The position numbers and the translations under genes were made by a program. The notes below the pieces were generated by a model. The model was not told where the DNA came from. It worked only from the letters and a program-made list of their open reading frames with translations, and ran no database searches. From the NCBI RefSeq assembly GCF_004010195.1, contig NC_057749.1:10527409-10585148 (forward strand): DNA of 57,740 nucleotides, read 5' to 3'. Below, one piece after another: positions 225-56,290 of this stretch. The stretch is from Chiloscyllium plagiosum (Eukaryota). Numbering within the stretch: position 1 is the first letter of the stretch; each line of letters starts with the position of its first letter.

Positions 225-336
225 CAAAAACAGAAATTGCTGGAAATGCTCAACAGGTCTGGCAGCATCTGTGAAGAGAAATCAGAGTTATCATTTCAGG
301 TCCAGTGACCCTTCCTCAAGAGTTACTTTGGTTTTT
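225..336 (-). mobile_element. Short PLE terminal-repeat insertion with 14-bp TSD
   Basis: aagtgagttggagt (211-224) and aagtgagttagagt (337-350); decayed core TTGAGGA-A-GGGTC-ACTG-GACCT-GAAAT on -. Confidence 0.75.
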
Positions 337-526
337 AAGTGAGTTAGAGTAGTGTTTCAAGTTAATGGAAGTTGGAGGTATTTTGATAGAGGCTGTGAAA
401 TTAGGTTTTTCAAAGAGATAATGAAATGCTAGAGATTAGAAATGATGATCGTTATCACAGACACTTACATAACAAGTTTTCATACCTTCTTAAAAACCTC
501 TTTCTTGCATTGTGGCTGTTTTACAG

Positions 527-726
527 AAGTGGGGAAGAATGGAGAAGAGATCGATTAGTTTTGAATAAAGCAGTGATGTCACCCCAAATTATCCAAAAGT
601 TTGTGCCACTTCTCAATGAAGTGGTGTTGGATTTTGTGTCCACAGTTCACAAACAGATTGCGAACAGTGGGAGAGAAACTTGGACAGCCGATCTCTCAAA
701 TGATCTCTTCAAATTCGCACTTGAAT
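527..726 (+). CDS. CYP11A1: CYP11A1 (cholesterol side-chain cleavage P450scc) exon 3
   Basis: ttacag acceptor and gtaagg donor; 200 nt; SGEEWRRDRLVLNKAVMSP...DLSNDLFKFALE is CYP11A-like; phase fits the next exon. Confidence 0.95.
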
Positions 727-2715
727 GTAAGGATCCAACATTGCTTCTTTACTTTGGTTATGCCATTACCTTATTTTACTTGCATGTTGTAGCCTTCAAA
801 ACTATTTTAAAAAATAACTTTTTAATTATTTTGGTATGAATTGCTTTACTGCAGCTTTCAATGGGAAAAATATTTTAAGTGATAAATGAATACCTTGACT
901 GCAAATATTCTTTGTTGTGGCGATGAAACCCTTAATACTGCAGTGCGTTATCATACATGAACAATGTGGCAGAGTGATATCATACTGATCTTTTGCTTAG
1001 CTTCGCAGTCTATTTTCTTGGAAAAGATTGGTCAGGTTGGACCTGTATCATTGGAGTCTAGAAGAATGAGATGTGATTTTGTTGAATCATATTAGATCCA
1101 GAAAAGACTTGACTAGGTGAATGTTGATAGGATGTTTCCCTTGTGCGATAAACTAGAACTTGTGAATCTAGTTTAGTAATAAGTGGACCTCTTACTTAAT
1201 ATGGAGATGCAGAAAACTTGTTCTCTCAGTGAGATTTTAGTCCATACAATTCTTTCCTCAGAGAATATTGTAAGGGGGGGTCATTGAATATTTTTAAGGT
1301 TGAGATTCTTAACTGACAAGGAAGTCAATGGGGATTGGGGTGGGGGAGCAAGGGGTGGTAGCAGGAAAGTGAAGTTGAGGTAAACGTCAGATCAGCTGTG
1401 ATTTTACCAAACGGCAGAGCAAACTTGAGGAGCCACTCCTGTGCCTAATTTGTATGTTTATATATTCAAACCTCAGCAACAAAAACTTGTATTTATGTAT
1501 CGACTTTAATGTAATTAAATATCCCAAAGTGTGTTATAGAAGGACATTTGACATTAGGTACCACAGGGAAATATTAGGTGAGATGTGTAAAAGCTTGGTC
1601 AAAGGGCTAGATTTCAAGGAGCATCTTAGTGACAGAGAGCGATGGAGAAGTTTGGAGAGGAATTCCAATGTGTAAAGCCTATACACAGCCAACAATGGAA
1701 CAATTAAAATATGTGATTTACAAGAGCTTGGAATTGGAGGAGCATAGCATTCAGAACCGAAGGTAATTACAGATTTATAAAAAGGAGCAAGGCAATGGAA
1801 AGATTGAAGATAAATTAAACTTAATTAAATATTAAGTTTTGAGACTGCCAGCCAGCATGGAGCAATGAGCAGAGAAGTGATGACTGAAGCATTTGGTGAT
1901 GACTGAAGGGTGCAGTTTTACGGATGTGCTCAGACGCCACAGTGAGCCAAACTGGTCCATTTTATTCAAATCACTAAACAGGTATTGTTTTTCATTAGTT
2001 GTTGAATGTTCTACTATATAAAGAAGTAAGAATGTTGTACTAGTTTTTGGAAAACTGGAGCATCTTAAATATGCTTCAGTACAGTGTCTCTAAAGTAACC
2101 CCAGATTAGCAGTCAGCATTAGCCCCTTTTGCGTAGCTGAGCTCAATTATTTATTTAAATTATTAATATCTTAATTTTAACACTCATGTTTTGTTATTCA
2201 CATAAAAAGTGTTGGTGAAATTGGACAGGAGTGGGGATCAATTCCAATTGTATCGTATGCCCTTTCTCTTAAGCATAACAGCTAATATTCAACATTGTTG
2301 ACTTCAACAGAACTGAAAGTAGGAGATGTGGAATGAAGGTCAGCAAAATATAGTTCCATCTTCTGTGAACTCACAATATCCAGTTTCAGTTCCATGATGT
2401 CTTCTCAGTAAAGTTTAACCTTAGTTAGATTTCAGGCAAAGTAAAAGGGGAGATATATATTCAGGAAGCTAATTTTTAGATCTGTATTTGGCACAAGGTA
2501 CAGCCAATTTTAACTCATTTAAAACTGAGCTAACTACACAGTAATGATAGCAAAATGGGGTAGACCAGGCTTTATAGCCCCATTAATGCCTATTCTTTTG
2601 AAGGTGTCCTTCTCTACAGGAGTCTATCACTTACAAATTGCCTGCCCTTTCAGGAAATAAGCCCCTTTTGACACATGAATCAAGGTTCAGTGAAATTCAG
2701 AGAACCACGTTGGCT

Positions 2716-2804
2716 ATGTTAGGACAGGGCTGCATACACTGTGTACACATTATAACAATTCAAGGTGGCCCACCATGTTAGGACAGGGCTGCATACACTG
2801 TGTA
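2716..2804 (+). repeat. Perfect 30-bp direct repeat with 29-bp spacer
   Basis: atgttaggacagggctgcatacactgtgta at 2716-2745 and 2775-2804. Confidence 0.95.
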
Positions 2805-3299
2805 GTCAAAGAAGCTCCGGGAAAATACATTTTAACTTACTTTATGGGGTTCAGGAGGAATGAGACCACCTCTAAACATAGCTGAGAAACTGTTACCTTA
2901 AGGCAGTCCTAATCAGTTTCCACAATTGAGACCACACTCTCACTCTTTGAAGGACTTAGCTGCTGGCCATACAGTCAGCATCCATTATTGCCCAAGTCCA
3001 AATATAGTAAGCTGCACCACGATTGCTTATATGCCCCTCAGAGCACCACTTCTATTTAAGTGAATTCTGGGCTCAGATGTATGCGCGCATCTTAAGGGAA
3101 CATTGGTTGTCTGCTGCTTGAGATAGCTACATGATAGCGCAGTTTGGAGGGAACTTCAAAATCCACTCCCTATATGCTCTACTACTTCAGTAAGACCAGA
3201 CTATTAAGGATGTTTTATCTCCAAATGTTTTTAATGTCAGTCTGTTAATGTAAATTCATCAAGAAATAGTGGAAGAATTTCCAATCTTTGCTTTTACAG

Positions 3300-3503
3300 C
3301 TGTTTGCCATATATTGTATGGAGAACGTCTGGGCTTGCTGCAATGTCTCCATAACCCTGCATCACAAAAGTTCATCGATTCAGTTACGTTGATGTTCAAA
3401 TCCACAACTCCAATGCTTTATATTCCACCTGGGCTTCTGAAGTCAATTAAATCGAAGATCTGGCAAGATCACGTTGCTGCTTGGGATACCATTTTTTCAC
3501 ATG
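3300..3503 (+). CDS. CYP11A1: CYP11A1 exon 4
   Basis: ttacag/gtgaga; 204 nt; (S)VCHILYGERLGLL...KFIDSVTLMFKSTTPMLYIPP...WQDHVAAWDTIFSH. Confidence 0.96.
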
Positions 3504-3845
3504 GTGAGAAAATCAGGACAAATGTCTATTAATTGTGGAAAACGGTGGCGGCGCCAAGTGAACTCAATAGTTGAATTTCTACTTCCTGTTACGTTTTGCT
3601 TATTTACTCTGGCTATTTCTATTTGTAATTTTATTTTGTTCTGTTACATCCTTGTTGTTAACCACTTCTTCAACAAGGACAGCAGCACATTGTACACTAC
3701 AATTTGGTCATCTGTGCTTTCCTTCTCCCATATGTTTGACAGTTCAGTGCTTCTTTTCCTCTTTTCAGCATTTTAACCTTTAATTTTCTCTAAATCTTTC
3801 CATTGATCTCATTGGCTATTGAAGGAAAGTTACCTTCCATCAACT

Positions 3846-11671: not shown

Positions 11672-13845
11672 GATGTAGGATTGCTCGCTGAGCTGAAAGG
11701 TTTGTTTTCAGATGTTTCATCACCATATGTGGTAACATCATCAGTAAGCCTCCGTTCGAAGCGCTGGTGGAATGGCCCGCTTTCTATTTATGTGTTTAGG
11801 TTTCCTTGGGTTGGTGATGTCATTTCCTGTTCTTTTTTCTCATTGGGTGGTAAATGGGATCCAAATCAATGTGTTTGTTGATAGAGTTCTGGTTGGAATG
11901 CAATGCTTTGAGGAATTATTGTGCATGTCTCTGTTTGGCTTGTCCTCGGATGGATGTGATGTCCCAGTCAAAGTGGTGTCCTTCCTCATCTGTATGTAAG
12001 GATACGAGTGAGAGTGGGTCATGTCATTTTGTGGCTAGTTGATGTTCATGTATCCTGATGGCTAGTTTTCTGCCTGTTTGTCCAATGTAGTGTTTGTTAC
12101 AGTTCTTGCAAGGTATTTTGTAAATGACATTAGTTTTGTCTGTTGTCTGCCCTGTTCACATCCAACAACATCAACCTGGCCGAGGAAGCACTGACTACAT
12201 TATTAGAAGAACCAAAGACAAATAAAGCAAACACCACCAACCTCATCAGCAATGATAATATCGTCAAGCCAGTGTACCTATGCCTTACCACCCACTTCAC
12301 CTTCAATGACAAAACCTACAGACAAACCAACAGAACACTCATGGGATCTCCGCTATCAGGGTTCTTAGCAGATGCAGTAATGCGGACACTTGAACAAATA
12401 GCTCTGCCAACCATCCAACCCAAACGTTGGGTCCACTACGCGGATGACTCCTTCATCATCACTAAATGAAAAGAATTAGAGGAAACCTTCAAGACCACCA
12501 ATAATATCTTTCCTAGCATAAAATTCACTAAAGTGGAGGAAAACAACAACAAACTGCCATTCCTAGATGTCGCAGTCGAGTAAGCAGCCAATGGGGAACT
12601 TCAAACCAACGTCTTCAGAAAAACAACACATACTGACCAAATACTGAACTACAGAAGCAATCATCCCAACACCCAAACGAAGCTGCATTAGAACATTATT
12701 TCAACAAGCTACCACACACTGCAGCATAGAGAAACTGCGCAGAGCAAAGGAAAATCACCTATACAGTGTACTCAAAAAGAACAGGTACCCAACGAACACA
12801 ATCTGTCGATTTCTCAGCAACAAACCCCAACAAGCAGACAAAACACGTCCAGAAACTCTAGCCAATCTCTCCTACATCAAAGACATCTTGGAAATGACCG
12901 CCAGACTACTCAGACCACTTGGCATCACGGTAGCCCACAAATCCATCATCACACTAAAGCAGCAGCTAGTGAACTTGAAAGACCCTAATCAGACAACAGA
13001 CAAAACCACTGTCATTTACAAAAAACCTTGCAAGAACTGTAACAAACACTATATTGAACAAACAGGCAGAAAACTAGCCACCAAGGTACATAAACATCAA
13101 CTAGCCACAAAAAAGACATGACCCACTCTCACTACTATCCTTACATACAAATAAGGAAGAACACCACTTTGACTGCGACAACACATCCATCCTCGGACAA
13201 GCTGAACAGAGACACGCACAAGAATTCCTAGAAGCATGACATTCCAACCGGAACTCAATCAACAAACACAATGACTTGGATCCTATTTACCAGCCTCTGA
13301 GAAAAAGAACAGGAAATGACATCACCACAAGAAATGGTGTCCACAGGAAATGATTAGATTAGATTAGATTACATTACATTACAGTGTGGAAACAGGCCCT
13401 TCGGCCCAACAAGTCCACACCGACCCGCCGAAGCGAAACCCACCCATACCCCTACATTTACCCCTTACCTAACACTACGGGCAATTTAGCATGGCCAATT
13501 CACCTGACCCTGCACATCTTTTGGACTGTGGGAGGAAACCGGAGCACCCGGAGGAAACCCACGCAGACACGGGGAGAACGTGCAAACTCCACACAGTCAG
13601 TCGCCTGAGGCGGGAATTGAACCCGGGTCTCAGGCGCTGTGAGGCAGCAGTGCTAACCACTGTGCCACCGTGCCGCCCACTAATGATGTCACCAACCCAA
13701 GGATAACTAAATACATAAATCGAAAGTGGGCCATGCCACCAGCACTTCGAAAGGAGGCTCACTGATGATGTTACCACGTATGGTGAAAAAATGTCTGAGC
13801 AATCCTACATCCTGAGCTACAAATCTTCTCAAAACTCACTAACTA
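11672..13845 (+). mobile_element. 5'-truncated Penelope-like element with an inverted copy of its 3' end and a 13-bp TSD
   Basis: RT (LMGSPLSGFLA..., HYADD) and GIY-YIG-like (VIYKKPCKNCNKHYIEQTGR) on + from about 12150; inverted 3' portion at 11672-12149; actatgggcaatt at 11659-11671 and 13846-13858. Confidence 0.93.
13355..13681 (-). mobile_element. Young HE1-type tRNA-derived V-SINE inserted in the Penelope element
   Basis: A/B-box head (gtggcacagtggttagc...gggttcaattcc), V-domain, CR1-like tail with (taatc)n; aatgat flanks both sides. Confidence 0.9.
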
Positions 13846-17054: not shown

Positions 17055-17221
17055 ACTTCCATGACTCTCTTATGGACTATGTATGAGCTTGCCAAATACC
17101 CCAACGTGCAGGAAAATTTACGCAGTGAAATTATAGAAGCCAATCAGAAAACACAAGGAGATCCATTACAAATGTTAAAATCAGTGCCATTACTCAAAGC
17201 TGCACTCAAGGAAACATTGAG
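17055..17221 (+). CDS. CYP11A1: CYP11A1 exon 6
   Basis: aaacag/gtaaga; 167 nt; TSMTLLWTMYELAKYPNVQENLRSE...VPLLKAALKETL(R); ExxR motif and the basic adrenodoxin-contact segment. Confidence 0.96.
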
Positions 17222-17314
17222 GTAAGACCGGGTTGCAGTTATAAGAAATATCAACTACAGTCTTCTCAAATTCTTAAGGCATTTAAAATGACTGCGAAGG
17301 TACTAAATGTACCA

Positions 17315-17535
17315 ATAGTGCTTCAGTGCCATAGTGAGGAAATGCTACACTGTCCGAGAGTTTGTTTTCAGATGCTGCTTTAAACTCAGGTCCTGACTGC
17401 TCTCTTACGTGGATTCGATTCCAAGACACTACCTTGGTGAAGAACAGGCAAAATATCCCTAGTATCTGGCCATTGATTCCTCAGTTATTACCAATAAAAT
17501 TATATGGTCATTAGCACATTGCTGTTTGTTGGAGA
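17315..17535 (+). mobile_element. Deu-domain SINE remnant (others near 19400-19690 plus 20600-20740, 50845-51320, and 55220-55365 on -)
   Basis: Degenerate match to the recalled Deu-domain consensus (gctgcactgtc...taaac...ccatggcacta...gaagaacagg). Confidence 0.55.
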
Positions 17536-23584: not shown

Positions 23585-24879
23585 CTTTTGCAAATACCCT
23601 TGATTAGGAAAAAACCCAATGATCTGAACTGTCTTTAACTTACAAAATGGCTGTTATCACCTCAGCAGAATATGCTCAGAATTTTTTTCCACATCATTCT
23701 TTGCACATACGTTTAAAGATAAATTGACCAATAGTACATATAACAGATTTTTGAAATATTATTTGCTAACTATTAAGATTTTTCATCAGTTTTTGTTCAA
23801 GTTTCTCAATTTGGATGTGTAACTTGTTTTCCCAGGTCCCACCACTGACATTTATTTCCAAAGAGACCCAATTACTCCTGAGGTGATTTTTGGAAGCTTT
23901 GGTGTGCATCCTGCTAATTGATCCATTTTTCTTATTTGTTATCCACTCACATTGCAAATGGCTGTCCTTTTTTTTGATATTCTGTTGTATACTACTAATT
24001 CGATTTGACTCATAGCCATTAATTATACACATTTAGCATTGTGTCTTAACACGTGCCTTGGGCTGTTTTAAAATTATCACTAGCAATAACAATTGGTTAC
24101 ATCAGTTTCTCTGCAATGCAGATACATCACTTGCCACTAAAAGGAGAAAGGCCCTGGATTATGTTAAAATGTAATGCATCCAAAACTGTGGGAGATGATG
24201 ATCTGGTCCTATGCAGTTCTGTACTCTGGTGTGTACTTGACATGAAAAACCGCAGCCCTTTATTCCATCAGTGTTTTGCTTGCTGCTATGGATTCTGAAA
24301 GTTTTAGTAGCATTACTTTATACCAGTCCACAATGCCAGTAACCAACCTCAAATCATGGAAAATCAAAAACACTCCAATTCCCTTCATCTAATACAGCAT
24401 TCCCGCAGTTCAGATAAACCTAGTGCACCATGAGCTTATTGTATTTGGCCAAAGTTACCAGATCATAATCATTAAAGTAAAGATAAAGTCACCATAATCC
24501 TACGAGACCATAGGGCTGCTCTCTCATTAGAATGGAACAACTGGTGGTGGTGGTGTAATCTGAGGGTGACTGCATCTTGGGCAAGGGGAGAGATTGAGAA
24601 GGTGAGTCCTTCATGGTAATCTTAGCTGGTGCAGGAATTAAACCCATTCTGTTGGCACCACTCTGCGTCACACACCAGTTACAACCACTGAGCTAACCAA
24701 CCTTGTACTGTGATCATAGTGTGTCACATGCTTCATAAATTGACCATTAAGAGGAGAGTCAAATGAAGTGGTAACAAGATCTCTCTGGGGAACAAAGGCA
24801 ATAACAGAAATAGCCCCTTTGGTAGATACAGGAACAATTCAGGTAACCTTAATACAAAGCTACCTCTAATGACCATACA

Positions 24880-25575
24880 GGACGAACACAGTCCGCCGAT
24901 TTCTCAGCAACATACCCCAACAAGCAGACAAAACACATCCAGAAACCCTAGCCACTCTCCCTTACATCAAAGACATCTCAGAAATGACTGCCAGACCTCT
25001 TGGCATCATAGGAGCCCACAAACCCACCAACACAGCTAATGAACTTGAAAGACCCTATACAGACAACAAGCAAACTAATGTCATTTACAAAATACTGTGC
25101 AAGAACTGTAACAAACACTACATTGGACAAACAGGCAGAAAACTAGCCACCAGGATAGATGAACATCAACTAGCCACAAAAAGACATGACCCACTCTCAC
25201 TAGTATCCTTACATACAGATAAGGAAGGACACCACTTTGACTGGGACAACACATCCATCCTAGGACAAGCCAAACAGAGACACACATGAGAATTCCTAGA
25301 AGCATGGCATTCCAACCAGAACTCTATCAACAAACACATTGACTTGGATCCCATTTACCACCCCATGAGAAAAAGAACAGTAAATGACATCGCCATAGGA
25401 AATTATGTCACCACAGGAAATGACATTACCAACCCGAGGAAACCGAAACACATAAATAGAAAGCGGGCCATGCCACCAGTGCTTCATCCAGAGGCTGACT
25501 GATGATGTTACTTAGTATCATGACAAAGCGTCTCAAAATGAACTTTGCAGCTCAGCGAGCAAACATCCATCCAGT
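24880..25575 (+). mobile_element. Penelope-like 3' fragment (GIY-YIG plus terminal repeat), same family as 11672-13845
   Basis: NVIYKILCKNCNKHYIGQTGRKLATRIDEH; decayed CTGATGA core near 25499. Confidence 0.9.
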
Positions 25576-30892: not shown

Positions 30893-31090
30893 GATGTGGA
30901 GGTGCCAGTGTTGGACTGGGGTGGATAAAGTTAAAAATCACATGATACCAAATTATAGTCCAGCAGGTTTATTTGGAGTTACAAACTTTCAGGGCGCTGC
31001 TCCTTCGTCAGGTAGCTCGTGGAGTAGAATCATAGGATACAGAATTTACAGCAAAAGATCATAGTGTCATACACTGATGCAATATATTGA
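30893..31090 (-). mobile_element. Terminal repeat of another PLE family, with hammerhead-like motif (30979-31014)
   Basis: On -: UAC-CUGACGA-A-GGAGC-AGC-GCCCU-GAAA-GUUU-GUA. Confidence 0.6.
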
Positions 31091-32573: not shown

Positions 32574-32672
32574 GAAGCCTTCACAAGAGGCTCCCAAGCA
32601 CTGAGGATGTCACCTAGACAGGGGACGAAACGTCTGCAACACAAATTCCCGGCTCGGCGAACAGAACCACAA
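32574..32672 (+). mobile_element. 99-bp PLE mini-insertion with a perfect 12-bp TSD, inside a CR1
   Basis: caacaataaggt at 32562-32573 and 32673-32684. Confidence 0.88.
32598..32637 (+). ncRNA. Minimal type I hammerhead ribozyme motif, intact core
   Basis: GCA-CUGAGGA-U-GUCACCU-AGAC-AGGGGAC-GAAAC-GUC-UGC. Confidence 0.8.
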
Positions 32673-32734
32673 CAACAATAAGGTCCCTAGCACTGATTCC
32701 TGTGGTATGACACTGCACTCCAGGCTAGAGGCAA

Positions 32735-32972
32735 TAAAAATCACAGGTGCTGGAATCCAAAGTAGACAGACAGGAGGCTGGAAGAACAGAGCAAGCATGC
32801 AGCATTAGGAGGTGAAGAAGTCAATGTTTCCGGTGTAACCCTTCTCCAGCAGGTTCCAGCCGCACAAACAGCCTTCAACACACCACTGCAACCCCTGGCC
32901 AATATTTCAGTCTTAGGCCTGCTGCAGTACTCTAGCAAAGCTTAACACAAGCTAGAGGAACAACAGCTCATA
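32735..32972. mobile_element. PLE remnant: tail on - (decayed CTGGAGA-A-GGGT-TAC-ACCG-GAAAC) joined to an ORF C-terminal fragment on +
   Basis: ...LANISVLGLLQYSSKA*HKLEEQQL resembles PLE endonuclease C-termini. Confidence 0.55.
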
Positions 32973-35730: not shown

Positions 35731-36188
35731 TCTGCTAAGGAAGGGTCGCTGGACCCGAACCTTTAACTCTTCACAGATGCTGACAGACCTGCTGAGCTTT
35801 TCCAGCAACTTCTGTTTTTGTTTCTGTTTACAGCATCTGCAGTTCTTTCAGTTTCTATGATCAGTTGAATTTCTCCAGCACTTTCTGTTTTAGATTGGAG
35901 ACGACTTTCATTCTCCTCTTTATAACTGTTGGTGCAAATTGACATTGAGATATTACAAGCATGGAGATTCCGTCATGGTGCGAGAGGGTTTGAGTACAGG
36001 AGCAAGATGTTTTGCTGCAATTGTACAGGGCCTTGGTGAGACCACACTGGGGTACTGTGTGCAGTTTTGGTCTCATTATCTGAAGAAGTATGTTTTGTCT
36101 GTGGGGAGGGCGCAATGAATGTTCACCAGATTGAATCCTGCAATAGCAGAACTGAAATACAAAGAGAGGCTGAATAGGTTAGGATCAC

Positions 36189-36522
36189 AGTTTGTGAGAA
36201 GATTTGTAGCTCGGGTGCTCGTTGCTGTGGTTCTGTTCACCGAGCTGGAAGTTTTTGTTGCAAACGTTTCGTCCCCTGTCTAGGCATGGCACTCATCCAC
36301 AAATTCCATCAACAAACACATCGACCTGGGCCCAATATACCGGCCACTACAGCGGATAGCTGAAACTGACAACCGGAAGCGGCAGGGATAGGCCACTATA
36401 AATTCCGGAGGAAACACCACAGAAGCGCTTCACAGGAGGCTCCCAAGCACTGAGGATGTCACCTAGACAGGGGACGAAACGTTTGCAACAAAAACTTCCA
36501 GCTCGGCGAACAGAACAACAGC
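36189..36522. mobile_element. Inverted PLE terminal-repeat insertion with a perfect 13-bp TSD, inside a CR1
   Basis: aggttaggatcac at 36176-36188 and 36523-36535; left end is the reverse complement of the right-end repeat. Confidence 0.9.
36447..36486 (+). ncRNA. Minimal hammerhead ribozyme motif, intact core
   Basis: GCA-CUGAGGA-U-GUCACCU-AGAC-AGGGGAC-GAAAC-GUU-UGC. Confidence 0.78.
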
Positions 36523-37547: not shown

Positions 37548-37891
37548 AATTAGGAGAAAATGAGGACTGCAGATGCTGGAGATCAGAGTCGAAGAGGCTG
37601 AAAAAGCACAGCAGTCAGGCAGCATCCAAGGAGCAGGAGAGTTGACGTTTCAGGCTTAAGCCCTTCATCAGGAATGTGAAGTAGGGGAGAAGGGGGCTGA
37701 GAGATAAATAGGAGAGTGAGGGTGGGGGTGAGGTAGCTGGGAAGACGAAGTCCATATTCCTTCCCACCTATCCACTCCGACTTATCATCATCATCCCCCC
37801 CTACCTGCAACTACATATCACCTTACCCGCTACCTCACCCCCACCCCCACCCTCCTATTTATCTCTCAGCCCCCTTCGCCCTGCCGCACTT
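37548..37891 (-). mobile_element. PLE 3' end with internal inversion and hammerhead motif (37641-37675)
   Basis: On -: AUUC-CUGAUGA-A-GGGC-UUAA-GCCU-GAAAC-GUC; 37683-37744 is inverted at about 37822-37882; ggttacata flanks both sides. Confidence 0.75.
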
Positions 37892-39042
37892 ATCGACAAT
37901 GGTTACATAGATGTAAATAGTCCACCTTTTTAATTTCAGATTTGGATTGAATTCAAATTTTGCCAACTGCCCTGATGGAATTCGAACCCATGTCCTCAGA
38001 ACATTAGCCAGGACCTCTGGATTATTAAAAGCCAAAAGAATTGTGGATGCTGTAGATTAGCAACAAAACTAGAAATTGCTGGATGAGCTGAGCAGGTCTG
38101 GCAGCGTCTGTGGAGAGAAATCCGAGTTAATATTCCGGGTCGAGTAAGGACACTCTTGGTAAAAGGCAAATTCAGAAAATCTGATTGTCTCACAGGCAAC
38201 TGGTCAGTCCAGTCGGAAAATTAATCAAGAAGAATCTGAGATAGAGATAGAGAGAAAGTAGCAGGGAGAGATATACTGCAGCTTCCAAACCCAGCTTCAA
38301 GACCCCAGCAACTGCTACTGAAAAACTAAAAACCCAAAACTCCTGGTTCTGTGGCAACTTGACCCTTCCACTTAGGGTTCTATTGTTCTACTTTAAAAAG
38401 TCCTGACTATTAGGGCTTTCAATAGACAGCTTTCCACCTCTGTCTTAAAATCCCTCTTCAAAAACAAAACAGGACAAAATATATCTCTTCAGGCCACAGT
38501 AATGTCAGAGGGAGGTTTTAAGCGAGTGAAAGGTACTACTGCCAACAGTGAAGCAAAGCCAATCAATTAGATAATGGGTTTGAGTCCTTGTATGGTTCCA
38601 AAATTCAAAACATTTTAGCTCAGTGAAGAATTCATAGAGTCACAGAGTCACATAGCACGGAAACAGACCCTTCGGTCCAACCAGAACATGCTAGCCCTAA
38701 TCCCAAACTAAACCAGTCCCACCTGCCTGCTCCTGGCCCATGTCCCTCCAAACCTTGCCTTTTCGTGTACTTATCCAAATGTCTATTAGACGTTGTAATT
38801 GAACTCACATCACTTTCTCAGGAAGTTCATTCCACACACAAACTATCCACTGTGTAAAAAATTTGCCCCCTCGTGTCTTTTTTAAATCTCTCTCCTCTCA
38901 CCTTAAAAATGTGCTCGCTAGTCCTGAAATCCCCCAAACTCGGGAAAAGACAACTAGCATTTACTCTATCCATACCCCTCACGAATTCCAGCAACTGAGC
39001 GAGCCAGTATAGGGTAAATTTTTAGGAGCTCTTTTATTCCAG

Positions 39043-39261
39043 GAGAAAGTGAAGACTGCAGATGCTGGAGATCAGAGTTGAGAGTGTGGTGCTGGAAAAG
39101 CACAGCAGGTCAGGCAGCATCCGAGGAACAGGAGAATCAACGTTTCGGGCATAAGTGCTTCATCAAGAATTCCTGACAAAGGGCTTCCGCCTGAAACATC
39201 GATTCCCCTGCTTCTCAGGTGCTGCCTGACCTGATGTGCTTTTCCAGCACCACACTCTCAA
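39043..39261. mobile_element. Spacer-less palindromic PLE terminal-repeat pair
   Basis: Arms 39074-39169 and 39170-39265 centred on gaattc; 14-bp flanking duplication (12/14). Confidence 0.85.
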
Positions 39262-39347
39262 CTCTTAGATTCCAGTCAATTAAAATGTTAAAGAATCTAG
39301 AGTCCACATGTTAATCAGATCTCATTTATTGGATAAAGGAATCATAC

Positions 39348-44480: not shown

Positions 44481-45463
44481 CTGGAAATCAAATAAGCAAA
44501 AATACAAATGAAAAGAGGTTTAAAGTTCAGTTCCACACCCACACAATTTAGATGATGGTTTCTAACAGCAATGAGAACCAGTCCCTTTACTAATCCAGCA
44601 ACACGGGGACTAAGGACAGTTGTTCATCAAGGAGCTACCGCGGGCCTGAAGGACAGATTGGTCTCTTTCTGCAGACAGAAAGTCAAGTGCAGGATAAAAA
44701 CGCCTTCCAGGAAATGTAGCCCCAAGATCTGTGACTAGGAAGCGATGGGTTCAGCTTAATTTAATAAAATACTATTGAGTTACTCAGTGGATAGCTCTTT
44801 AATCTTTGTGCAGAAAGTCTATTTTATATTATCTCATGGTCCAGAGTGTTGATCAGCCAGCTATGAAAGCCTGTGCTATTGACATTGTTGGAAAGCATAA
44901 CTGAGGTAGCACAGTGACTCAGTGGTTAGCACCACTGTCTCACAGCGCCAAGGACCCGGGTTTGATTGCACCTCTGGGAGACCGTCTGTGTGGAGTTTGC
45001 ACATTCTCCCTGTGTCTGTGTGAGTTTCTTCCCACTGTCCAAAAATGTTCAGGTTAGAGTGGTTTGACCATGCTAAATATGGGATTACTGGGATAGGGAG
45101 GGTCTGGGTCTGGGTAGGGGTGGCAATGGCATAGCGGTATTATCACTTGACTATTAATCCAGAAACTCAGATAATGTTCTGAGGACCTGGGCACCAATCC
45201 TGCCATGGAAGATGGTGGAATTTAAATTCAGTTTAAAAAGTCTAATGATGGCCATGAATCCATTGTTGATTGTCATTAGAACCCATCTGGTTCACCAGTG
45301 TCCTTCTAGGAATGAAACTGCAATCCTTACCTGGTCTGGTCTACACATGACTCCAGACCCACAGCAATTAGGGATAAATTGGTAATACGTGCAGGCCTAA
45401 CCAGGGATTTCCGCATCTCCCTGGGTGAATAACTAAACTTGCTCTTCAGAGGGTTTGTGCAGA

Positions 45464-45637
45464 GTCGAAAAGTGTGGTGCTGGAAAAGCATAACAGGTCA
45501 GGTAGCATCCAGGGAGCAGGAGAGTTGACGTTTCAGGCATAAGCCCTTCATCAGAGATGTGGAGGGGAAGGGGGCTGAGAGATAAATGGGAGGGTGGGAC
45601 TGGGGAGAAGGAAGGTGGGAAGGCGATAGGTGGATGC
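45464..45637 (-). mobile_element. PLE terminal repeat with hammerhead motif (45524-45558) and 14-bp TSD
   Basis: On -: CUGAUGA-A-GGGC-UUAU-GCCU-GAAAC-GUC; agggtttgtgcaga and aggattggtgcaga. Confidence 0.78.
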
Positions 45638-45991: not shown

Positions 45992-45998
45992 CTGCCAG

Positions 45999-50576: not shown

Positions 50577-50660
50577 CTGAAAATGTGTTGCTGCAAAAGC
50601 GCAGCAGGTCAGGCAGCATCCAAGGAGCAGGAGAATCGACGTTTCGGGCATAAACCCTTC
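50577..50660 (-). mobile_element. 84-bp PLE terminal fragment with a perfect 13-bp TSD
   Basis: ttctttttcaaaa at 50564-50576 and 50661-50673; truncated within the hammerhead core. Confidence 0.8.
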
Positions 50661-52883
50661 TTCTTTTTCAAAAGCCCACACGTGTGTGAGATGCCCGATA
50701 CTGCACTGCCTGCAGGAAGGTTACAATGTTGTATATCAAGGTTGAGGCGTGCTCTGCCCTGGCGTAGCACACTGTGTGCAGAACTGTGTCAAATAATCAG
50801 CAATATTAACAGCACAAGTGATAAGTTTAGCCACAAGTTGTCAAATGTTGCTGCACTGTCAGAAACATGGTTTTAGAACATTAGCAGCATTAAACTGAGC
50901 CTCTATCTGCCCTAGTGAGGGCAGAAGTTCCCTTGGTATTGTTCCTAAGAAGAACAGAAAGAACTTGCCTGCTAACATTGAACCTTCAACCATTTATTTT
51001 GTGGTCACTCTTTGTGGGATCTTGCTCTGCAAAAATCAGCTGACGTTTGCCTTGGCTTTCAACAGTGGTCACGCTCATTGGTCTTCTCCACAGCAAAAAC
51101 TCAGCCAATCAGACTCGAGCTACCATCCAATCAGCAGTCTTTCCGGCCACGGTATAAGCTGTTGAGAAGGTTGGAGATTCGGCATTCTTGCATTTGTCCT
51201 GATGAGCGCAGGGCAAAAATCTTTGGAAACATGGTGTTGTTTTCAGCAAGGCGTTCATGGTCTGTGCAGCTGGGAATGTGTTGAAGTTGTGAAAGGTGCT
51301 ACGTATGTGAAGCTTTTCCTTCCATCAATATTCAGAAGAGGGACCAGCAACGACCGTTAGTAAGGAGGACCTGAAGAAACGTGCACAACGGAGAGGGAGG
51401 CAGAAAGAAAAGGAATTCCTGAGAGTGGGAATTTCAGAGAGCGATGTTAAAGACACATGCCAGTGAAATGAATCAGAAATAAGTGCACGGAACGCAATGG
51501 GGAAGTATCAAGAGTGGACAGGTGGATGAGGCTGTTTAAGGTTACTGTGCTGAGGAGATCATGGAAGGTTTTAAAAGACAGAGAGCCGACAGATAAAGAA
51601 GATAATTACACTTTGCCTCCAAAGTAACCATTTTCCAAGAATGCTCTGACAAAGTGAATATATCAAAAGGTCAAGGGCAGCCAAGCACAAAAGGTCATTC
51701 GGCCCATCAATTCCATGTTGGGTGTCTGAGGTGCAATCCATTCAGTCCTTTTCCCACCCCTTCCTACTCCACACCCCCAGCTTTATCGGTCCTAATGCCA
51801 TTACATGTGAATCCTGTGGTGATTGATGACCGTGTCAGGATTAGTATAGCTGTAAAACCCGCTCATGTGAAATAACGGTCAGTTAACAGTTAATGTTACC
51901 ACTGTAATGGATGCAGTGTGTGTTGTATTTGTTGCTAGTAGAGTCCTTGGTGAGATCTGAACTCCTCCTCTGACCTGGCCCCCCTCCACTCCCACGTTGC
52001 CAGCATTACAAATTTGAGACACGGACTGAAATCCCAAGGGCAGTCAGCGTATCTGAGGGAGTGGAAAGAGGGTGAAAATATCTTCTTTTGAAAAGAAAAC
52101 AGAACACAACTTATAACTCTTGAGGACAAGGTTAGATTTCCATTTGCGACAGAAGATTAGGCTTTCAATCAAGGATCTTAATTGTTACAACAAAGGCTGG
52201 TTCTGAAAATGTATGATCCTCCTCAAACAGTGCAGCTATATTGGCTTAGGATGTGAAGAAAGTAAACTATGTTATCTGGCCATTATTTAGACTATGTGTT
52301 GTTTTATAGAAAAGAAACAGATTTTACAACCTTTTTGCAAAGCTTTTGTGTCTTGATGCAAAATGGAACGGAGATAGAGTTGTTTCCCAGTGTTAAAGCA
52401 AGTGCGGTGGGTTTGGGACAAAGGTACTGAGCTGAACCTAATCTATTTCCTCCCACAACATATTCAGAGTTTAGACAACAGACAAATTACTGAAGAAAAT
52501 TTAACTGTCTTCAGTATAGAATGTACAGCAGAGAAACAAAAACACAGGAAATAGGAACTGGAGTAGGCCATTCTGCCCATCAAGTCTGCTCCAACCATTC
52601 AATATGATCAAGGCTGTTCATCTGACTCAGTAACCTGTTTCTGCTTTCTCTCCTTGCCCTTTGATCCCTTTAGCCTAAAGAACCACATCTAAATCTTAGT
52701 TGAAAACATTCAACGTATTGTTCTCAACAGCTTTCTGTGGTTCATCACACTCAGGGAGAAGAAATTTCTCCTCACTTCAATTCTAAATGGCCTCCCCCGT
52801 ATCGTCAGGCTGTGACCCTAATTCCGGACTCAGGTAGGTCCTCCCTGTGTTTACCCTGTTCAGTCCAGCTGGCTCACTCTGGA

Positions 52884-53036
52884 TCAAATCCAAAACACCC
52901 GTAGACGCTGCCAATCAGAAGCAAAAACAGAAATGTACTGAGGAGGGATCAGTCGACCAGAAACACTAGCTCGGATTTCTCTCCACAGATGCTGCCAGAC
53001 CTGCTGAGCTTTTCCAGAAATTTCCGTTTGTGTTTG
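52884..53036. mobile_element. Inverted PLE terminal-repeat insertion with 14-bp TSD
   Basis: tggctcactctgga (52870-52883) and tggctcattctgga (53037-53050); CTGAGGA...GAAAC at 52938-52964. Confidence 0.75.
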
Positions 53037-53342
53037 TGGCTCATTCTGGAGTTTAGGCTCCACAAGACCCTCCTCCCATCTCTCTTCAGGGAATCCCAAC
53101 ATGACATCCTACCTCCCTGGAAGATGATCCAGTTTCCACTCATGCATATCATACAGTTCTCAGTCTCCACCATTCCTTTTGGTATCACTTGCGAACCAGT
53201 CTCTCGGTTTATTGTTTCTGGTGGATTCCTTAATGAGTTTATTAGCATCTATCTTCCAGTTATGATCCTTAGTATTGGCCTCTCTTATTCCTTCTGCTAT
53301 TCAGCTGCTCTGGTTCTGTTCGCCAAGCTGGAAGTTTTTGTT

Positions 53343-53382
53343 GCAAACGTTTCGTCCCCTGGCTAGGTGACATCATCAGTGC
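53343..53382 (-). ncRNA. Minimal hammerhead ribozyme motif (left arm)
   Basis: GCA-CUGAUGA-U-GUCACCU-AGCC-AGGGGAC-GAAAC-GUU-UGC. Confidence 0.78.
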
Positions 53383-53463
53383 TTGGGAGCCTCCTGCGAA
53401 GCGCTTCTTTGATGTTTCCTCCGGTGTTTATAGTGGTCTGTCCCTGTCGCAGGAGGCTCCCAA

Positions 53464-53503
53464 GCACTGATGATGTCGCCGAGCCAGGGGACGAAACGTT
53501 TGC
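53464..53503 (+). ncRNA. Minimal hammerhead ribozyme motif (right arm)
   Basis: GCA-CUGAUGA-U-GUCGCC-GAGCCA-GGGGAC-GAAAC-GUU-UGC. Confidence 0.72.
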
Positions 53504-53593
53504 AACAAAAACTTCCAGCTCAGCGAACAGAACCACAGCAACGAGCACCCGAGCTACAAATCTTCGCTATTCAGCTGTTTTATAATTTGTTAT

Positions 53594-54731
53594 AGAACAT
53601 AGAAAAGTACAGCATAGAACAGGCCCTTTAGCCCACGATGTTGTGCCGAGCATTATTCCTAATGTAAAATAAAATAACTTAACCTACGCATCCCTCAACG
53701 CACTGCTCTCCATTTGCATGTCCAGCAGTCGCTTAAAAGTCCCTAATGACTCTGCTCCCACCACCACCGCTGGCAGCACATTCCATGCATTCACAACTCT
53801 CTCAGTAAAAAACCTTCCTCTGACGTCCCCTCTATACCTTTCTCCTAATATCTTAAAACAATGACCCCTCGTACCAGTCAATCCTGCCCTGGGGAAAAGT
53901 CTCTGGCTATTGACTCTATCTATGCCACTCATTATTTTGTACACCTCAATCAGGTCTCCTCCTCTTCCTCCTTCTCTCCAGAGAGAAAAGTCCAAGCTTA
54001 GTCAACCTCTCTTCATAAGGCAAGCCCTCCAGTCCAGGAAGCATCCTGGTAAACCTTCTTTGCACTCTGTCCAAAGCCTCTGTATCTTTCCTATAGTAGG
54101 GTGACCAGAACTGGACACAATATTCCAAGTGTGGCCTCACCAGGGACTTGTAGAGCTGTATTAAAACCTCGCGGCTCTTAAACTCGATCCCCCTGCTAAT
54201 GAAAGCCAAAACACCATATGCTTTCTTAACAACCCTATTCACTTGGGTGGCCATTTTGGGGAACTATGTACTTGCACACCAAGATCCCTCAGTTCCGCTA
54301 CACTGCCAAGAATCCTGTCTTTAATCCTATATTCAGCATTCGAGTTCGACCTTCCAAAATGCATCACTTCGCATTTATCCAGGTTGAACTCCATTTGCCA
54401 TTTCTCAGCCCAGTTCTGCATCCTGGGGTCTATGTTGCGCTGCAGCCTCAATAGGATACTATCAACGGCACCTCCAACCTTTGTGTCATCTGCAAATTTA
54501 CTAACCCATCCCTCAATCTCCTCATCCAAGTCATTTATAAAAACTACAAAGAGCAGAGGCCCAAGAACAGAGCCCTGCGGGACCCCACTCAACACTGTCC
54601 TCCAGACAGAATACTTTCCACCTATAACCACTCTCTGCCTCCTGTCAGCCAACCTAAACTGAATCCAGGTAGCCAAATCTCCCTGTATCCCATATCTCCT
54701 GACTTTATGAATGAGTCTACCATGGGGACCC
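53594..54731 (-). mobile_element. Young CR1 3' fragment
   Basis: SGVPQGSVLGPLLFVVFINDLDE...KFADDTK...LVRPHLEYCVQFWSP; few frameshifts. Confidence 0.93.
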
Positions 54732-55484
54732 ATGAAAGTGAATACCTCACACGTTCCCATACTGTACTCCATCTACCATTTCTTTGCTCACTGCCCTCCA
54801 TCATCCAAATCCTTCTGATGCCTCCACGTTTTTTTAACACTACCTGTCCCTCCAGCTAACTGTGTTATCTGCAAATTGAGCAACAATGCCCTCAGTTCCT
54901 TCGTCCGAATTGTTGATGTAGAACTTGAATAGTTGTGGTCCTGACACTGAATCCTGTGGAACTTTGGCAATCCACTGGCTGCTATCCTGAAAAAGACCCC
55001 TTTGCCCTTACTTTCTACCTTCTGCCAGGCAGCCAACTCTCTATCATGCCCATACCTTGCCCTAACACCAGGGGCTCTTACCTTATTTTGCCACCTCCAA
55101 AGTGTGACACTTTGTCTGCAAATCCAAATAGATCACATCCATTGGCTCTTCTTTGTCTAACTTGCTCATTACCTCCTTGAAGAATTCTAACAGATTTGTC
55201 AGGCATGACCTCCCTGGATGAATGAGGAATATTGGCCATCATTTTCTGCTTATCTTCAAAAAAGTGCCATGGGATCTTTCTACGTTAGACCAAGAAACCA
55301 GAAGCTGCTTCAGAATGACAGTGTCTCCAAAAGTACTGCACACCCTCGGAATTGCACTGGAAGTGCCAAGATCTTGTCAAATCTCATTGCCTCCCCCCAG
55401 TCCCATGAGTCTTGTTGCCAACATTGTCCCCATCCCCCAACCATGGTCCATGTGAGATGATTGACTTCAGCAGAAGGAACAAGA

Positions 55485-56290
55485 CAAGGGAGCACTCAGT
55501 GAATGGCAGGACCTTACAAAGTTCAGAGTGATCTTGGGATGCTTGCCCACAGATCCCTGAAGGTGACAGGACAGGTTAATAGGGTTAACAAGGCATACGG
55601 GACACCTGCTTTTATCAGGGAGCAGAAAGTAAGGACTGCAGATGCTGGATAGCAGAGTCAAAAAGTGTGGCACTGGAAAAGCACAGCCGGTCAGACAGCA
55701 TCCGGGGAGCAGGAGAGTCGACATTTCGAGCATAAGCGTCGTGACCTGCTTCTATCAGTCAAGGCATGGATTAAAAGGGCAAGAAGTTATGTTGGAGCTG
55801 TACAGGATTGGTCGGGGCAGAGCTGGAATACTGTGTGCCGTTCCAGTCACCGCACTATGAGAAGGATGTGATTGTACTGGAGACAGTGCAGAGGAGATTC
55901 ACCAGGACGTTACCTCTGAGATGAAGAGATGCTATTCTTTGGAACAGAGATGATTGAGGGGGGATCCTGATTGAGATGTTTAAGATTACGTCGGGCAAGG
56001 ACAGTCGTGATTGAAAGTAGCTGTGAAGGGTCAAGAGCGAGGGAGCACACTTTTAAAGTGAAACAGAGGTTTAGAGGAAAATCCTTTTCATCCTAAGGAT
56101 GGTGTGGGTTTGGAATGCACTGTCTGGGAGAGTAATTAAGGGATGAAACTTCACAATCTTTAAAAAGTTTGGACGAACACTCTAAGTATCATAACTTTCA
56201 AGGCCTAATGTGCGAAGGTGGGCCAAGTTAGGTGCAAACTCAATGGGCTGAAGGAACTCTTCCATGCTGGATGACTCTATCATTCTCTGA
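55485..56290 (+). mobile_element. Old CR1 3' fragment (a younger CR1 follows at about 57230-57606)
   Basis: Degenerate CR1 ORF2 end; GPLLFIIYINDLD...FADDTK at 57230. Confidence 0.75.
55619..55743 (-). mobile_element. PLE terminal fragment with 15-bp TSD, inside a CR1
   Basis: acctgcttttatcag (55604-55618) and acctgcttctatcag (55744-55758). Confidence 0.8.

Follow-up and report, generated by a model that had tools for sequence, protein, structure and literature searches.

Six structural families of minimal hammerhead motifs in a Chiloscyllium plagiosum locus and their relation to Penelope-like elements

A stretch of 57,740 nucleotides from the genome of Chiloscyllium plagiosum (contig NC_057749.1, positions 10,527,409 to 10,585,148 of the forward strand; hereafter the window) is strewn with short repeats in which the two conserved boxes of the hammerhead ribozyme, CUGANGA and GAAA, flank stems of differing sequence. 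An initial annotation, made from the letters of the sequence, ascribed these repeats to about six families of Penelope-like elements (PLEs), each keeping a minimal hammerhead core with its own stem II. This raises the question of whether the motifs are hammerheads at all, what carries them and whether they serve for cleavage. We conclude that they are very probably minimal hammerheads of PLEs and of PLE-derived elements, which would act weakly, as double hammerheads, on multimeric transcripts, with the copies in the window as relics. The cleavage mechanism is proposed by analogy with published experiments on other PLE hammerheads.

Two patterns were searched for in the window, a loose one (CTGANGA-N8-30-GAAA) and a fuller, published-style descriptor (CTGANGA-N-G-N8-22-GAAAYRTH), and the chance level of both was set by 100 dinucleotide-preserving shuffles of the window. 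The loose pattern gave 15 matches versus 5.57 ± 2.49 in the shuffles and the fuller descriptor 7 versus 0.02 ± 0.14; none of the 100 shuffles reached either number. Four of the 15 loose matches (39459-, 45904-, 51199+ and 51371+) lie outside any family and look like chance. An exact CUGANGA...GAAA core is found at 8 sites, and about ten further copies are decayed (Table 1, where the families are lettered A to F by stem II type). Every site named in the initial annotation was found, within a few bases of its coordinate. The D and F copies, two of the C and two of the B copies are damaged in the core, stem II or helix III; where the copy at 52938 had been called the only decayed one, those at 320- (CUUGAGGA), 35735+ (CUAAGGA...GAAC) and 32849- (CUGGAGA) have decayed too. 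The proposed density of one motif per 4-5 kb holds for the 13 sites on which it was based, but comes nearer to one per 3 kb once decayed copies are counted.

Further patterns were run against the 3.56-Gb genome, each with the same pattern read backwards as the control; counts are given as forward plus reverse strand, and statements about individual places cover the first 100 places listed, on contig C1. The descriptor CTGANGANG-N8-22-CGAAACGTY matched 66,050 + 66,209 times (132,259) versus 24 + 24 (48) for its control. The dominant family, C (perfect core, GGGC/GCCC stem, ACGUC), was matched 43,103 + 43,151 = 86,254 times versus 0 + 0, and 97 of the first 100 listed descriptor places are of its GGGC type or one-base variants of it, the other 3 belonging to family A. 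A 33-mer of family A with up to 2 mismatches occurs 9,800 + 9,926 times (control 0 + 0), stems not starting with GG, which comprise A, B and compensated variants, 11,659 + 11,976 times (26 + 23), stems starting with GGGD, D and F included, 2,244 + 2,205 times (0 + 0), and a 34-mer of family E with up to 3 mismatches 7 + 9 times (0 + 0). The places listed for non-GG stems include the family A stems GUCACCU/AGGGGAC and GUCGCCU/AGGGGAC, the family B stem GUUACCU paired with GGGUGAC, AGGUAAC and similar strands, and the compensated variants GAGC/GCUC and GAGUC/GACUC. Roughly 16 intact D forms (GGGUC-ACUG-GACCC, GAAACGUU) and 9 intact F forms (GGGU-UAC-ACCC, GAAACGUU) are present among the first 100 GGGD places, and in 10 of the 16 genome matches of family E a U replaces the mismatching stem II C of the window copy. 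Since intact forms are found genome-wide, all six types are real families, of which the window holds worn copies in the case of D, F and partly E.

Thus the six stem II types proposed at the outset stand as multi-copy families, with intact cores genome-wide versus near-zero controls, and the suggestion that this genome is seeded with many diverse ribozyme modules was true but understated, given >130,000 motifs that match the intact descriptor. They are not, however, six independent lineages: families A and B are akin (blastn 69-72% identity and a homologous encoded N-terminus), and C, D and F have a similar 3′ tail sequence in common.

The proposed structure was assessed on exact-core instances with at least 3 stem II pairs, taken from the window and the sampled loci (310,911 bases; 85 instances, 46 of them distinct). 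Pairs were counted over 40 rows out of 47 (the 46 distinct instances and the window family E copy), leaving out three that are familyless or carry a deletion (L013:1138-1175, L064:2767-2806 and window:13756-13798) and four family E rows whose longer stem shifts the register; the sample is enriched for intact motifs. Over the whole structure 84.5% of cells are paired, versus 61.9 ± 1.8 in shuffled rows (0/500 reach the observed value) and 21-41% with the partner column slid. Because stem II pairing is partly fixed by the way the instances were selected, helix I provides the independent test: here 72.5% of cells are paired versus 48.9 ± 2.8 when shuffled (0/500 reach) and 11-49% on sliding; among the 40 sequences each of the four pairs changes on both sides. 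Helix I reads AUUC/GAAU or GAUU in family C, AGUC/GACU in a GGGU-CCUG-ACCC type, GCA/UGC in A, CCA/UGG and UCA/UGA in B, and CAC/GUG and UAC/GUA in the E types. Compensatory changes also separate the stems of different families (GGGC/GCCC versus GAGC/GCUC; GGGUC/GACCC versus GAGUC/GACUC). Sequence varies while pairing is largely kept, as the initial annotation had it.

The base after A9, between A9 and position 10.1, is unpaired (the script presumed one such base); this base is a U in A and B but an A in the other four families, and the G that follows pairs with the base preceding G12. This 10.1-11.1 pair (columns 15-32) is GC in 25, GU in 14 and AU in 1 of the 40 rows, and it is G.U in E and in both window C copies. 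Helix III consists of the tetrad A15.1-N-N-U16.1 alone; intact copies of A, B, C, D and F have ACGU there. Of the 16 family E matches, 7 have AGCU and 9 AGUU (self-pairing via G.U), so the tetrad keeps its self-complementarity when it changes; damaged copies have ACAU or AUGU. The predicted minimum free energy (MFE) structure of the monomer (ViennaRNA), computed for one C and one B copy, is exactly helix I plus stem II. The core boxes, the single unpaired base, the pairing of G10.1 with C or U at 11.1, the self-complementarity of the 15.1-16.1 tetrad and the covariation of a short helix I from family to family bear out the description of the motifs as minimal type I hammerheads.

What carries them is clearest for families A and B, which probably belong to Poseidon-like autonomous PLEs. 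In the window, the open reading frame (ORF) with a GIY-YIG domain at 24873-25286 (+) sits about 200 nt upstream of the B motif at 25499, and a genome search with this ORF gave E < 1e-57 in all 150 scored of 81,338 first-look candidates. An exact-core B motif lies 155-215 nt downstream of the endonuclease (EN) match, on the same strand, in 8/19 loci, and with one mismatch per box allowed the number rises to 11/19; in four loci (L021, L024, L025 and L028) an opposite-strand family B motif lies on the other side of the EN match. When natural PLE ORFs from the EN loci, unaltered, are used as tblastn queries, PLE homology stops 70-80 nt before the A core in 3 of 8 family A loci (L001, L003 and L006), and in the window coding homology at 36284-36370 likewise directly precedes a family A motif; further coding remnants are given in Table 1. 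As a separate observation, 14 of the 19 loci L011-L029 have a tblastn match at locus positions 1833-1997 on the strand opposite the EN frame (E about 1e-17 to 1e-28).

The motif itself is also part of the coding sequence in these two families. A9, the unpaired U and G10.1 form an AUG, which opens a frame conserved within and homologous between A (MSPRQGTKRLQ.KFPARRTEPQQRAPELQIF) and B (MLPSRVMKRLEMNLPAQRANLHPEPQPELQIF); families C to F have no AUG at A9-N-G10.1. Copies of family A either stop at 32674-32678 beside A/T-rich, non-conserved DNA or run on into the conserved start of the ORF. The two outcomes are seen in a raw-read RNA run (X23, a single-cell poly-A library, poor for cleavage ends, of which about 2% was sampled): 75 of 120 listed reads with loose ends behind 32674-32677 continue into one conserved sequence, the ORF start, and the remainder run into dissimilar sequence, where the flanks in DNA contigs are A/T-rich. 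Moreover, 14 divergent (minus then plus) family A pairs with a spacing of 67-1,043 nt occur among the first 100 places listed, as do 5 such pairs of family C with a spacing of 33-336 nt among its own first 100, and no convergent pairs at comparable distance were seen among the first 100 listed places of A or C. One candidate coding partner was rejected. A well-preserved reverse transcriptase (RT) fragment of a very abundant family at 54242-54772 (-) (RVT_1 E 3.5e-13; 456,453 first-look genome candidates) adjoins the family A copy at 53379-, and 0/19 of its genomic relatives have a downstream hammerhead; it is an unrelated long interspersed nuclear element (LINE) that lies there by chance.

The affiliation with PLEs put forward in the initial annotation is thus upheld for A and B, with GIY-YIG/EN-region homology immediately preceding the motif on its own strand and a start codon within it. 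For C the link is architectural (two 3′ ends, partial tandems and head-to-head pairs), and for D, F and E it goes no further than tail likeness or analogy.

Family C has a frame from A6-U7-G8 that meets a stop after 17 codons in nearly all copies. In 30 loci picked for a perfect C core, a biased sample, homology begins a median of 4 nt before the core. The idea of C as a unit of only about 130 nt, sharply bounded at its 5′ end, was abandoned as a product of this selection: among 62 non-targeted, tail-bearing copies, 16 extend upstream as a long form, 22 are 5′-truncated at scattered points, 9 abut their own inverted copy and 15 begin about 4 nt before the core beside unique DNA (at ATTC in 8 and TTTC in 3 of these 15). 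The 3′ ends fall into two groups in each loop sub-type. Counted from the cut site, copies with a UUAU loop (n=23) end at +56 to +69 in 13 cases and at +95 to +105 in 9, those with a UUUU loop (n=18) at +53 to +68 in 9 and at +98 to +105 in 6, and those with a CUGU loop (n=10) at +60 to +76 in 6 and at +105 in 2. Termini about 34 nt apart are the 'tail' signature of PLEs. Of the 13 short UUAU ends, 8 map to +60 to +65, within or next to the middle of a small inverted repeat, which reads, by sub-type, UCAGCUCUGA, UCAACUUUGA and CCAGAAUCUGG.

A search for the parent of C used a long-form UUUU copy with about 800 nt of upstream sequence, and 40 of 8,147 candidates were scored. It returned 14 non-self matches that span the core, of which 7 start at the identical base and 4 more within 26 nt, and all 14 end at +77 to +126. 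The long-form copy measures 535 nt, its longest frame is 122 codons, and its initial 55 nt match its final 55 nt at 96% identity, a terminal redundancy which implies that a 480-nt unit was copied at more than unit length. At three places (C29, C6 and C9) a partial copy lies directly upstream of a full C copy, each time near an opposite-strand fragment, and the sampled C copies are mostly solitary or inverted. At one further locus (L083, G000:C1:27372250-27372950, minus strand) two identical D motifs stand 122 nt apart, each with the same 22 nt upstream, and the stretch that separates them closes with the tail typical of a family C sub-type; the arrangement is a chimeric partial tandem. Two routes to an autonomous element of the C lineage were discarded. 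Three same-strand C pairs, 2.4-3.8 kb apart on contig C1, enclose no PLE ORF, and RVT_1 matches there amounted to one on the opposite strand and one weak; in L070 and L081, which have a PLE-coding fragment in common at a like offset upstream of a C motif, the intervening roughly 490 nt are unalignable.

Taken together, these data support family C, at least its UUUU sub-type, as a non-coding 480-nt unit with PLE-style ends and arrangements. D and F appear tied to C by their similar tail sequence only, and E would be a separate low-copy family, related to the others by motif type only. One could go further and regard family C, with at least 86,000 perfect-core copies, not as a decaying PLE tail but as a vertebrate 'retrozyme', a non-coding element of 480 nt that stands on its own and is moved in trans by PLE proteins; we offer this tentatively and with more doubt than confidence. 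If it is true, multimeric or circular RNA served as the template from which C was copied beyond unit length, and C has been amplified roughly ten times beyond the hammerhead populations in the parts of the published work compared below. The preferred 5′ end, which coincides with the first base of helix I, would in that case be a defined RNA start, not a random truncation, and the lineage would be a natural system for testing the in vivo role of minimal hammerheads.

The explanation that we favour for the whole set is that minimal type I motifs devoid of helix III ('min-HHRs') would be carried by PLEs and by short non-coding elements that use PLE machinery. In A and B the motif would mark the junction of pseudo-long terminal repeat (pseudo-LTR) and ORF, roughly 70-215 nt downstream of the EN-region homology of the preceding unit, and copies would end about 70-110 nt past the start codon, where reverse transcription would start internally, as it does in an anole element. 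C, and by tail likeness D and F, would be non-coding derivatives, with the UUUU sub-type of C copied beyond unit length. A lone copy would be unable to form helix III. Two copies on one multimeric transcript, by contrast, would pair via the tetrad (ACGU, or AGCU/AGUU in E) and helix I into a double hammerhead, which would cut after the NUH triplet, slowly and probably only with the help of the element's protein. The experimental precedents, in the sections of the two papers drawn on here, are that PLE minimal hammerheads have very low activity, and only as dimers or trimers (PMC4209133), and that the anole motif cleaves only with its protein, with cleavage abolished by C3G or by G8C and restored in some measure by C3G/G8C (PMC11167929).

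A number of observations weigh against this explanation. An Rfam scan of the window, at gathering score and at E <= 10 (17 hits), contains no hammerhead family, and the comparison with Hammerhead_1 that the initial annotation suggested gives no match at either level; the motifs have no intramolecular helix III. The 244 X23 reads on the family A repeat show an orientation bias of about 10:1, corresponding, by the convention of the mapping tool, to hammerhead-sense RNA. Read depth does not drop across the predicted cut at 32634/32635 (165, 157, 156), and this run shows no site of frequent molecule starts or ends on the repeat. Copy starts were considered as a fossil of cleavage and given up, about 3/66 beginning at +29 or +30. 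The preferred 5′ end of C lies about 4 nt before the core, not at the cut site, which the model leaves unexplained; a transcription start or a preference of the endonuclease for ATT are our guesses. The designed double hammerhead of C has -14.3 kcal/mol versus -19.5 for the dimer MFE (two free monomers -15.4), and that of B -17.1 versus -24.7 (two free monomers -17.4); being about iso-energetic with two monomers, the double hammerhead would make the dimer accessible, not favoured. The requirement for at least 3 stem II pairs makes the pairing percentages of that stem partly circular, and covariation is mostly between few families, which leaves few independent events. The placement of the A/B motif relative to the ORF was seen on the EN-downstream side, an autonomous mobiliser of C was not found, with no PLE ORF enclosed by the three same-strand C pairs, and catalytic mutants of the anole hammerhead do not impair insertion in vitro, in the part of that study cited here (PMC11167929).

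Some of this would suit an account in which the boxes are kept mainly for a non-catalytic job, such as start-codon placement, RT-EN binding or marking the site of internal priming, with cleavage incidental or vestigial. Such an account overlaps ours on what the motifs are and differs on what they do. It draws on the overlap of the A/B motif with the start codon and its encoding of the first residues of a conserved frame, on reads and copy starts that carry no trace of cleavage, and on the anole element, in which insertion in vitro withstands catalytic mutation, cleavage depends on the protein and, in the sections cited, no RNA-seq ends lie at the cut site (PMC11167929). Craig et al., moreover, describe PLEs that proliferate well with no hammerhead, and consider that hammerheads may simply parasitize PLEs (PMC8557442, in part). 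Yet the same boxes persist in C, D, E and F, non-coding families in which the unpaired base is A and there is no AUG, the frame of C ending after 17 codons; helices I and II covary as a hammerhead demands, the helix III tetrad is self-complementary even when altered, and the anole hammerhead does cleave with its protein and does show C3G/G8C rescue (same source). We regard a mainly non-catalytic role as unlikely, although it is the main rival to our reading.

For C to F it might also be argued that these are independent repeats, SINE-like (short interspersed nuclear element) or satellite, which happen to carry a hammerhead, as schistosome Sm-alpha and newt satellite 2 do, and are unconnected with PLEs. 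No PLE coding sequence is consistently beside C, the full UUUU unit, 480 nt long, is non-coding, D occurs as a 122-nt direct dimer, and the tails of C to F are unlike the A/B sequence downstream of the motif. Against such independence, C displays what the sections cited of PMC8557442 and PMC11167929 present as PLE hallmarks, namely two 3′ ends about 34 nt apart, divergent head-to-head pairs and a partial tandem together with an inverted fragment; the motif of C to F is of the A/B type, with unpaired base, self-complementary tetrad and short helix I; and a recent preprint argues, in the portion used here, that animal retrozymes are non-autonomous PLE derivatives (10.64898/2026.07.22.740005). 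We consider an origin unconnected with PLEs very improbable. Lastly, the boxes CTGANGA and GAAA are both short, and several of the loose matches, 15 in all, look like chance; one might suspect that all the motifs are accidental matches to a short degenerate pattern in ordinary repeats. This we give practically no credence, as chance is excluded by the controls (7 versus 0.02 in the window, 132,259 versus 48 in the genome) and by the covarying helices. Minimal hammerheads of PLEs and their derivatives thus remain our explanation.

The individual copies are collected in Table 1. Scores are from a covariance model (R1) built on 40 rows, nearly all of A, B and C with one decayed D and no E or F; at E <= 1 it missed the window copies of D, E and F, the D copy at 320- apart (15.7 bits, E 0.04). 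All copies in the window are truncated fragments, intronic or intergenic, mostly with mutated cores; they are relics, not working ribozymes.

Table 1. Hammerhead-bearing copies and PLE remnants in the window. 'Site' is the position and strand at which a motif is cited; 'exact' denotes an exact CUGANGA...GAAA core and 'damaged' a copy damaged in core, stem II or helix III.
Feature	Positions	Strand	Site	Details
Family A hammerhead, fully intact	32595..32640	+	32601+, exact	helix I GCA/UGC, CUGAGGA, unpaired U; stem II GUCACCU/AGGGGAC, then GAAA-CGUC; R1 38.7 bits (training row); predicted cut 32634/32635; copy homology about 32574-32676; AUG at 32607 opens frame MSPRQGTKRLQHKFPARRTEPQQQ
Family A hammerhead, intact	36444..36489	+	36450+, exact	GAAACGUU; found by core patterns, blastn and R1
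PLE coding homology, short	36284-36370	+		79 nt upstream of 36444..36489 motif; tblastn E 5.5e-7
Family A copy, inverted, truncated	36198..36285	-		begins at stem II, no CUGANGA box; left arm of head-to-head pair with copy 36422-36523; blastn 95-97% identity to query positions 72-159
Family A hammerhead, intact	53340..53385	-	53379-, exact	left arm of head-to-head pair; copy 53305-53439
Family A hammerhead, GUCGCC variant, intact core	53461..53506	+	53467+, exact	right arm, copy 53447-53606; frame MSPSQGTKRLQQKLPAQRTEPQQRAPELQIF...
Family A pair	53340-53506			sub-threshold Rfam hairpin match
Family B hammerhead, exact core	11705..11750	-	11744-, exact	7-bp stem II GUUACCA/UGGUGAU; tetrad changed to ACAU; inside inverted 5′-truncated PLE copy; coding homology 11673-12149 (-), tblastn E 6.6e-54
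Family B PLE fragment	11857..13801	+		RT/EN-region homology 11857-12021, 12284-13643; tblastn E 3.5e-82
Family B hammerhead with internal deletion	13756-13801	+	13762+, damaged	ends fragment 11857..13801; R1 21.6 bits
Weak RVT_1	12134-12466	+		Pfam E 2.8e-4; within family B PLE fragment
Family B PLE 3′ end	24873..25538	+		ORF with GIY-YIG 24873-25286; tblastn E 1.9e-95
Family B hammerhead, decayed	25493-25538	+	25499+, damaged	after GIY-YIG ORF; R1 18 bits
GIY-YIG PF01541	24873-25286	+		E 4.3e-5, 24.2 bits versus cut-off 22.6
Family C hammerhead, exact core	37638..37677	-	37671-, exact	stem II GGGC/GCCU, GAAACGUC; helix I damaged (AUUC versus AACU); R1 44.5 bits (training row)
Inverted repeat, roughly 200 nt	37685-37881			upstream of family C motif 37638..37677
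Family C hammerhead, exact core	45521..45560	-	45554-, exact	stem II GGGC/GCCU, helix I damaged; tail to about 45415
Family C head-to-head pair, decayed	39041..39265	both		sub-threshold Rfam hairpin match 39101-39239
Minus arm of 39041..39265 pair	39133-39172	-	39172-, damaged	U at C3, stem II broken; R1 24.2 bits
Plus arm of 39041..39265 pair	39167-39206	+	39167+, damaged	A at G8, tetrad ACAU; R1 30.3 bits
Family C copy, 5′-truncated	50580..50663	-		begins within core; R1 26.6 bits, model positions 9-34
Family C copy, 5′-truncated	55621..55737	-		tail and part of motif; 79-85% identity from query position 71
Family D copy, decayed	225..320	-	320-, damaged	CUUGAGGA, stem II GGGUC/GACCU, GAAAUGAU; tail resembles family C tail
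Family D copy, decayed	35735..35826	+	35735+, damaged	CUAAGGA; stem II GGGUC/GACCC intact; GAAC for GAAA
Family D copy	52938..53077	+	52938+, damaged	exact CUGAGGA and GAAA; stem II broken (GGAUC/GACCA); tetrad ACAC
Family D tail fragment	38072..38143	-		blastn 86% identity
Family E hammerhead, exact core CUGACGA	30976..31017	-	31011-, exact	stem II GGAGC-AGC-GCCCU, one A.C mismatch; tetrad AGUU, helix I UAC/GUA
Family F copy, decayed	32823..32849	-	32849-, damaged	CUGGAGA, stem II GGGU-UAC-ACCG, GAAACAUU
PLE coding remnants	11857-12021, 12284-13643, 24876-25496	+		tblastn
PLE coding remnants	11673-12149, 13119-13283, 25187-25351, 26286-26567, 35283-35410, 44939-45031, 49446-49649	-		tblastn

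Several other features of the window were noted. ORF pieces on the plus strand match cytochrome P450 at 405-836, 3254-3529 and 21452-21688 (E 1.9e-7, 4.4e-8 and 3.6e-22); they correspond to successive parts of the profile and are probably exons of a host gene, the introns of which contain the family B PLE fragments. A match to the bornavirus nucleoprotein BDV_P40 at 17129-17380 (+) is below threshold (E 0.008, 15.6 bits versus a cut-off of 26.3) and probably noise. A run of 568 N occupies window positions 30129-30696, about 280 nt from the family E copy. Head-to-head copies produce long near-perfect inverted repeats at 37685-37881, 53340-53506 and 39101-39239, transcripts across which would form long double-stranded RNA. 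The sub-threshold Rfam matches are to plant microRNA precursor families, up to 76.5 bits versus a gathering score of 168, and are an artefact that any long hairpin gives. In X23 the family A copy shows two variants at about 15%, A>T at 32629 (22/152) and C>G at 32631 (22/147), which make up under 0.4% of DNA-contig depth in another run (X15) and probably come from one diverged, highly expressed copy. Words of 31 letters from the family A copy also occur in runs (X1-X19) of five organism labels (A to E), and family A, or its motif-bearing part, may be shared by several related species.

How do these families compare with what is known? The closest precedent is the class of min-HHRs described by Cervera and de la Peña in 2014 (PMC4209133), for which we rely on part of the text. 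Besides the core boxes, its members have a base intervening between positions 9 and 10.1 and pair G10.1 with C11.1; the 15.2-16.2 stretch is palindromic and has no loop 3, helix II is long and helix I short, and the motifs are located in pseudo-LTRs that flank an RT-EN ORF. They form families rich in compensatory changes, with mostly solitary copies and opposite-strand pairs 100-700 bp apart. The motifs reported here share the boxes, the unpaired base, the G10.1-C11.1 pair and a self-complementary 15.2-16.2 without loop 3, and they have a helix II of 7 bp in A/B and a helix I of 3-5 bp. Likewise, several consensus families with compensatory changes coexist in one genome, copies are mostly solitary and opposite-strand pairs occur. 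The motif of A/B, seen on the downstream side of the EN region, may correspond to the published placement in pseudo-LTRs. Unlike the min-HHRs of that account, the dominant family has a helix II of only 4 bp. Our 132,259 matches also exceed the roughly 4,000 (coelacanth) and 9,000 (Xenopus) that it calls remarkable, a loose comparison as the descriptors differ. Cartilaginous fish are unmentioned in its main text, as far as we draw on it. The class, its family-wise covariation, the solitary scattering and the opposite-strand pairs were thus already described in 2014.

The layout of A and B recalls the anole Poseidon element PAc (Frangieh et al., 2024; PMC11167929, in the sections used here), the ORF of which begins at stem II. 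There the cut site lies 26 bp past the start codon, and reverse transcription starts internally at two adjacent sites whose spacing equals an optional 30-40-bp 'tail'. In A/B the start codon lies where stem II begins, and the cut site falls 28 nt past the A that opens the AUG; there are two alternative 3′ ends (in C and in the loose ends of A), A/T-rich 3′ flanks and a GIY-YIG endonuclease, and, as for PAc, RNA-seq shows no ends at the cut site. The coding region may be of the same type, RT with a C-terminal GIY-YIG: GIY-YIG scores above the Pfam cut-off, RVT_1 is weak and tblastn matches to natural ORFs are long. In family A, however, copies terminate some 68-75 nt and some 105 nt past the AUG, unlike the 111-118 nt of PAc. 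The overlap of motif and start codon and the double termini were, accordingly, described in 2024. Partial tandems that form pseudo-LTRs, an adjacent inverted 5′-truncated copy and a tail are given as features of PLE insertions in the part of PMC8557442 cited above, and the partial tandems and divergent pairs of C and D match that description.

As non-coding units of a few hundred nucleotides with a type I hammerhead, the C-type repeats also resemble the animal non-LTR retrozymes, which are reported as monomers, dimers and partial tandems related to PLE pseudo-LTRs (PMC7229834; 10.64898/2026.07.22.740005; both in part). They differ in that the sampled copies of family C are for the most part single or head-to-head and do not form long tandem arrays, and that C is known here from DNA. 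The preprint of Li, Clavereau and Pollet (2026), in the sections drawn on, finds retrozymes in its one cartilaginous fish, and its largest count is 14,255 'active' copies (axolotl), under another definition than ours (10.64898/2026.07.22.740005).

A full-text literature search, with Dfam, Repbase and supplements outside its scope, found no description of these particular families, and it is copy number alone that is notable. The present families add cartilaginous-fish-type genomes to the hosts of PLE minimal hammerheads and indicate that >10^5 intact motifs, of at least six structural families, can coexist in a single genome, the most successful carrier being a non-coding 480-nt unit. They also suggest that the anole architecture, with a start codon in the ribozyme and double 3′ termini, recurs in a distant vertebrate lineage. 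This recurrence and the 480-nt carrier are of specialist interest and leave the current picture unchanged; to the question of an in vivo role the finding contributes an abundant natural substrate only. Unlike the hammerheads of RF00163, of which we take the schistosome Sm-alpha and newt satellite 2 motifs to be canonical type I members, those described here lack an intramolecular helix III, a loop 3 and loop-loop tertiary contacts, and the Rfam model gives them no score. Hammerheads with a short helix III reportedly act as dimers, an observation ascribed to Forster and colleagues (1988). With the members of RF00163 the present motifs nevertheless share the same catalytic core, the type I topology and their carriage by repeats.

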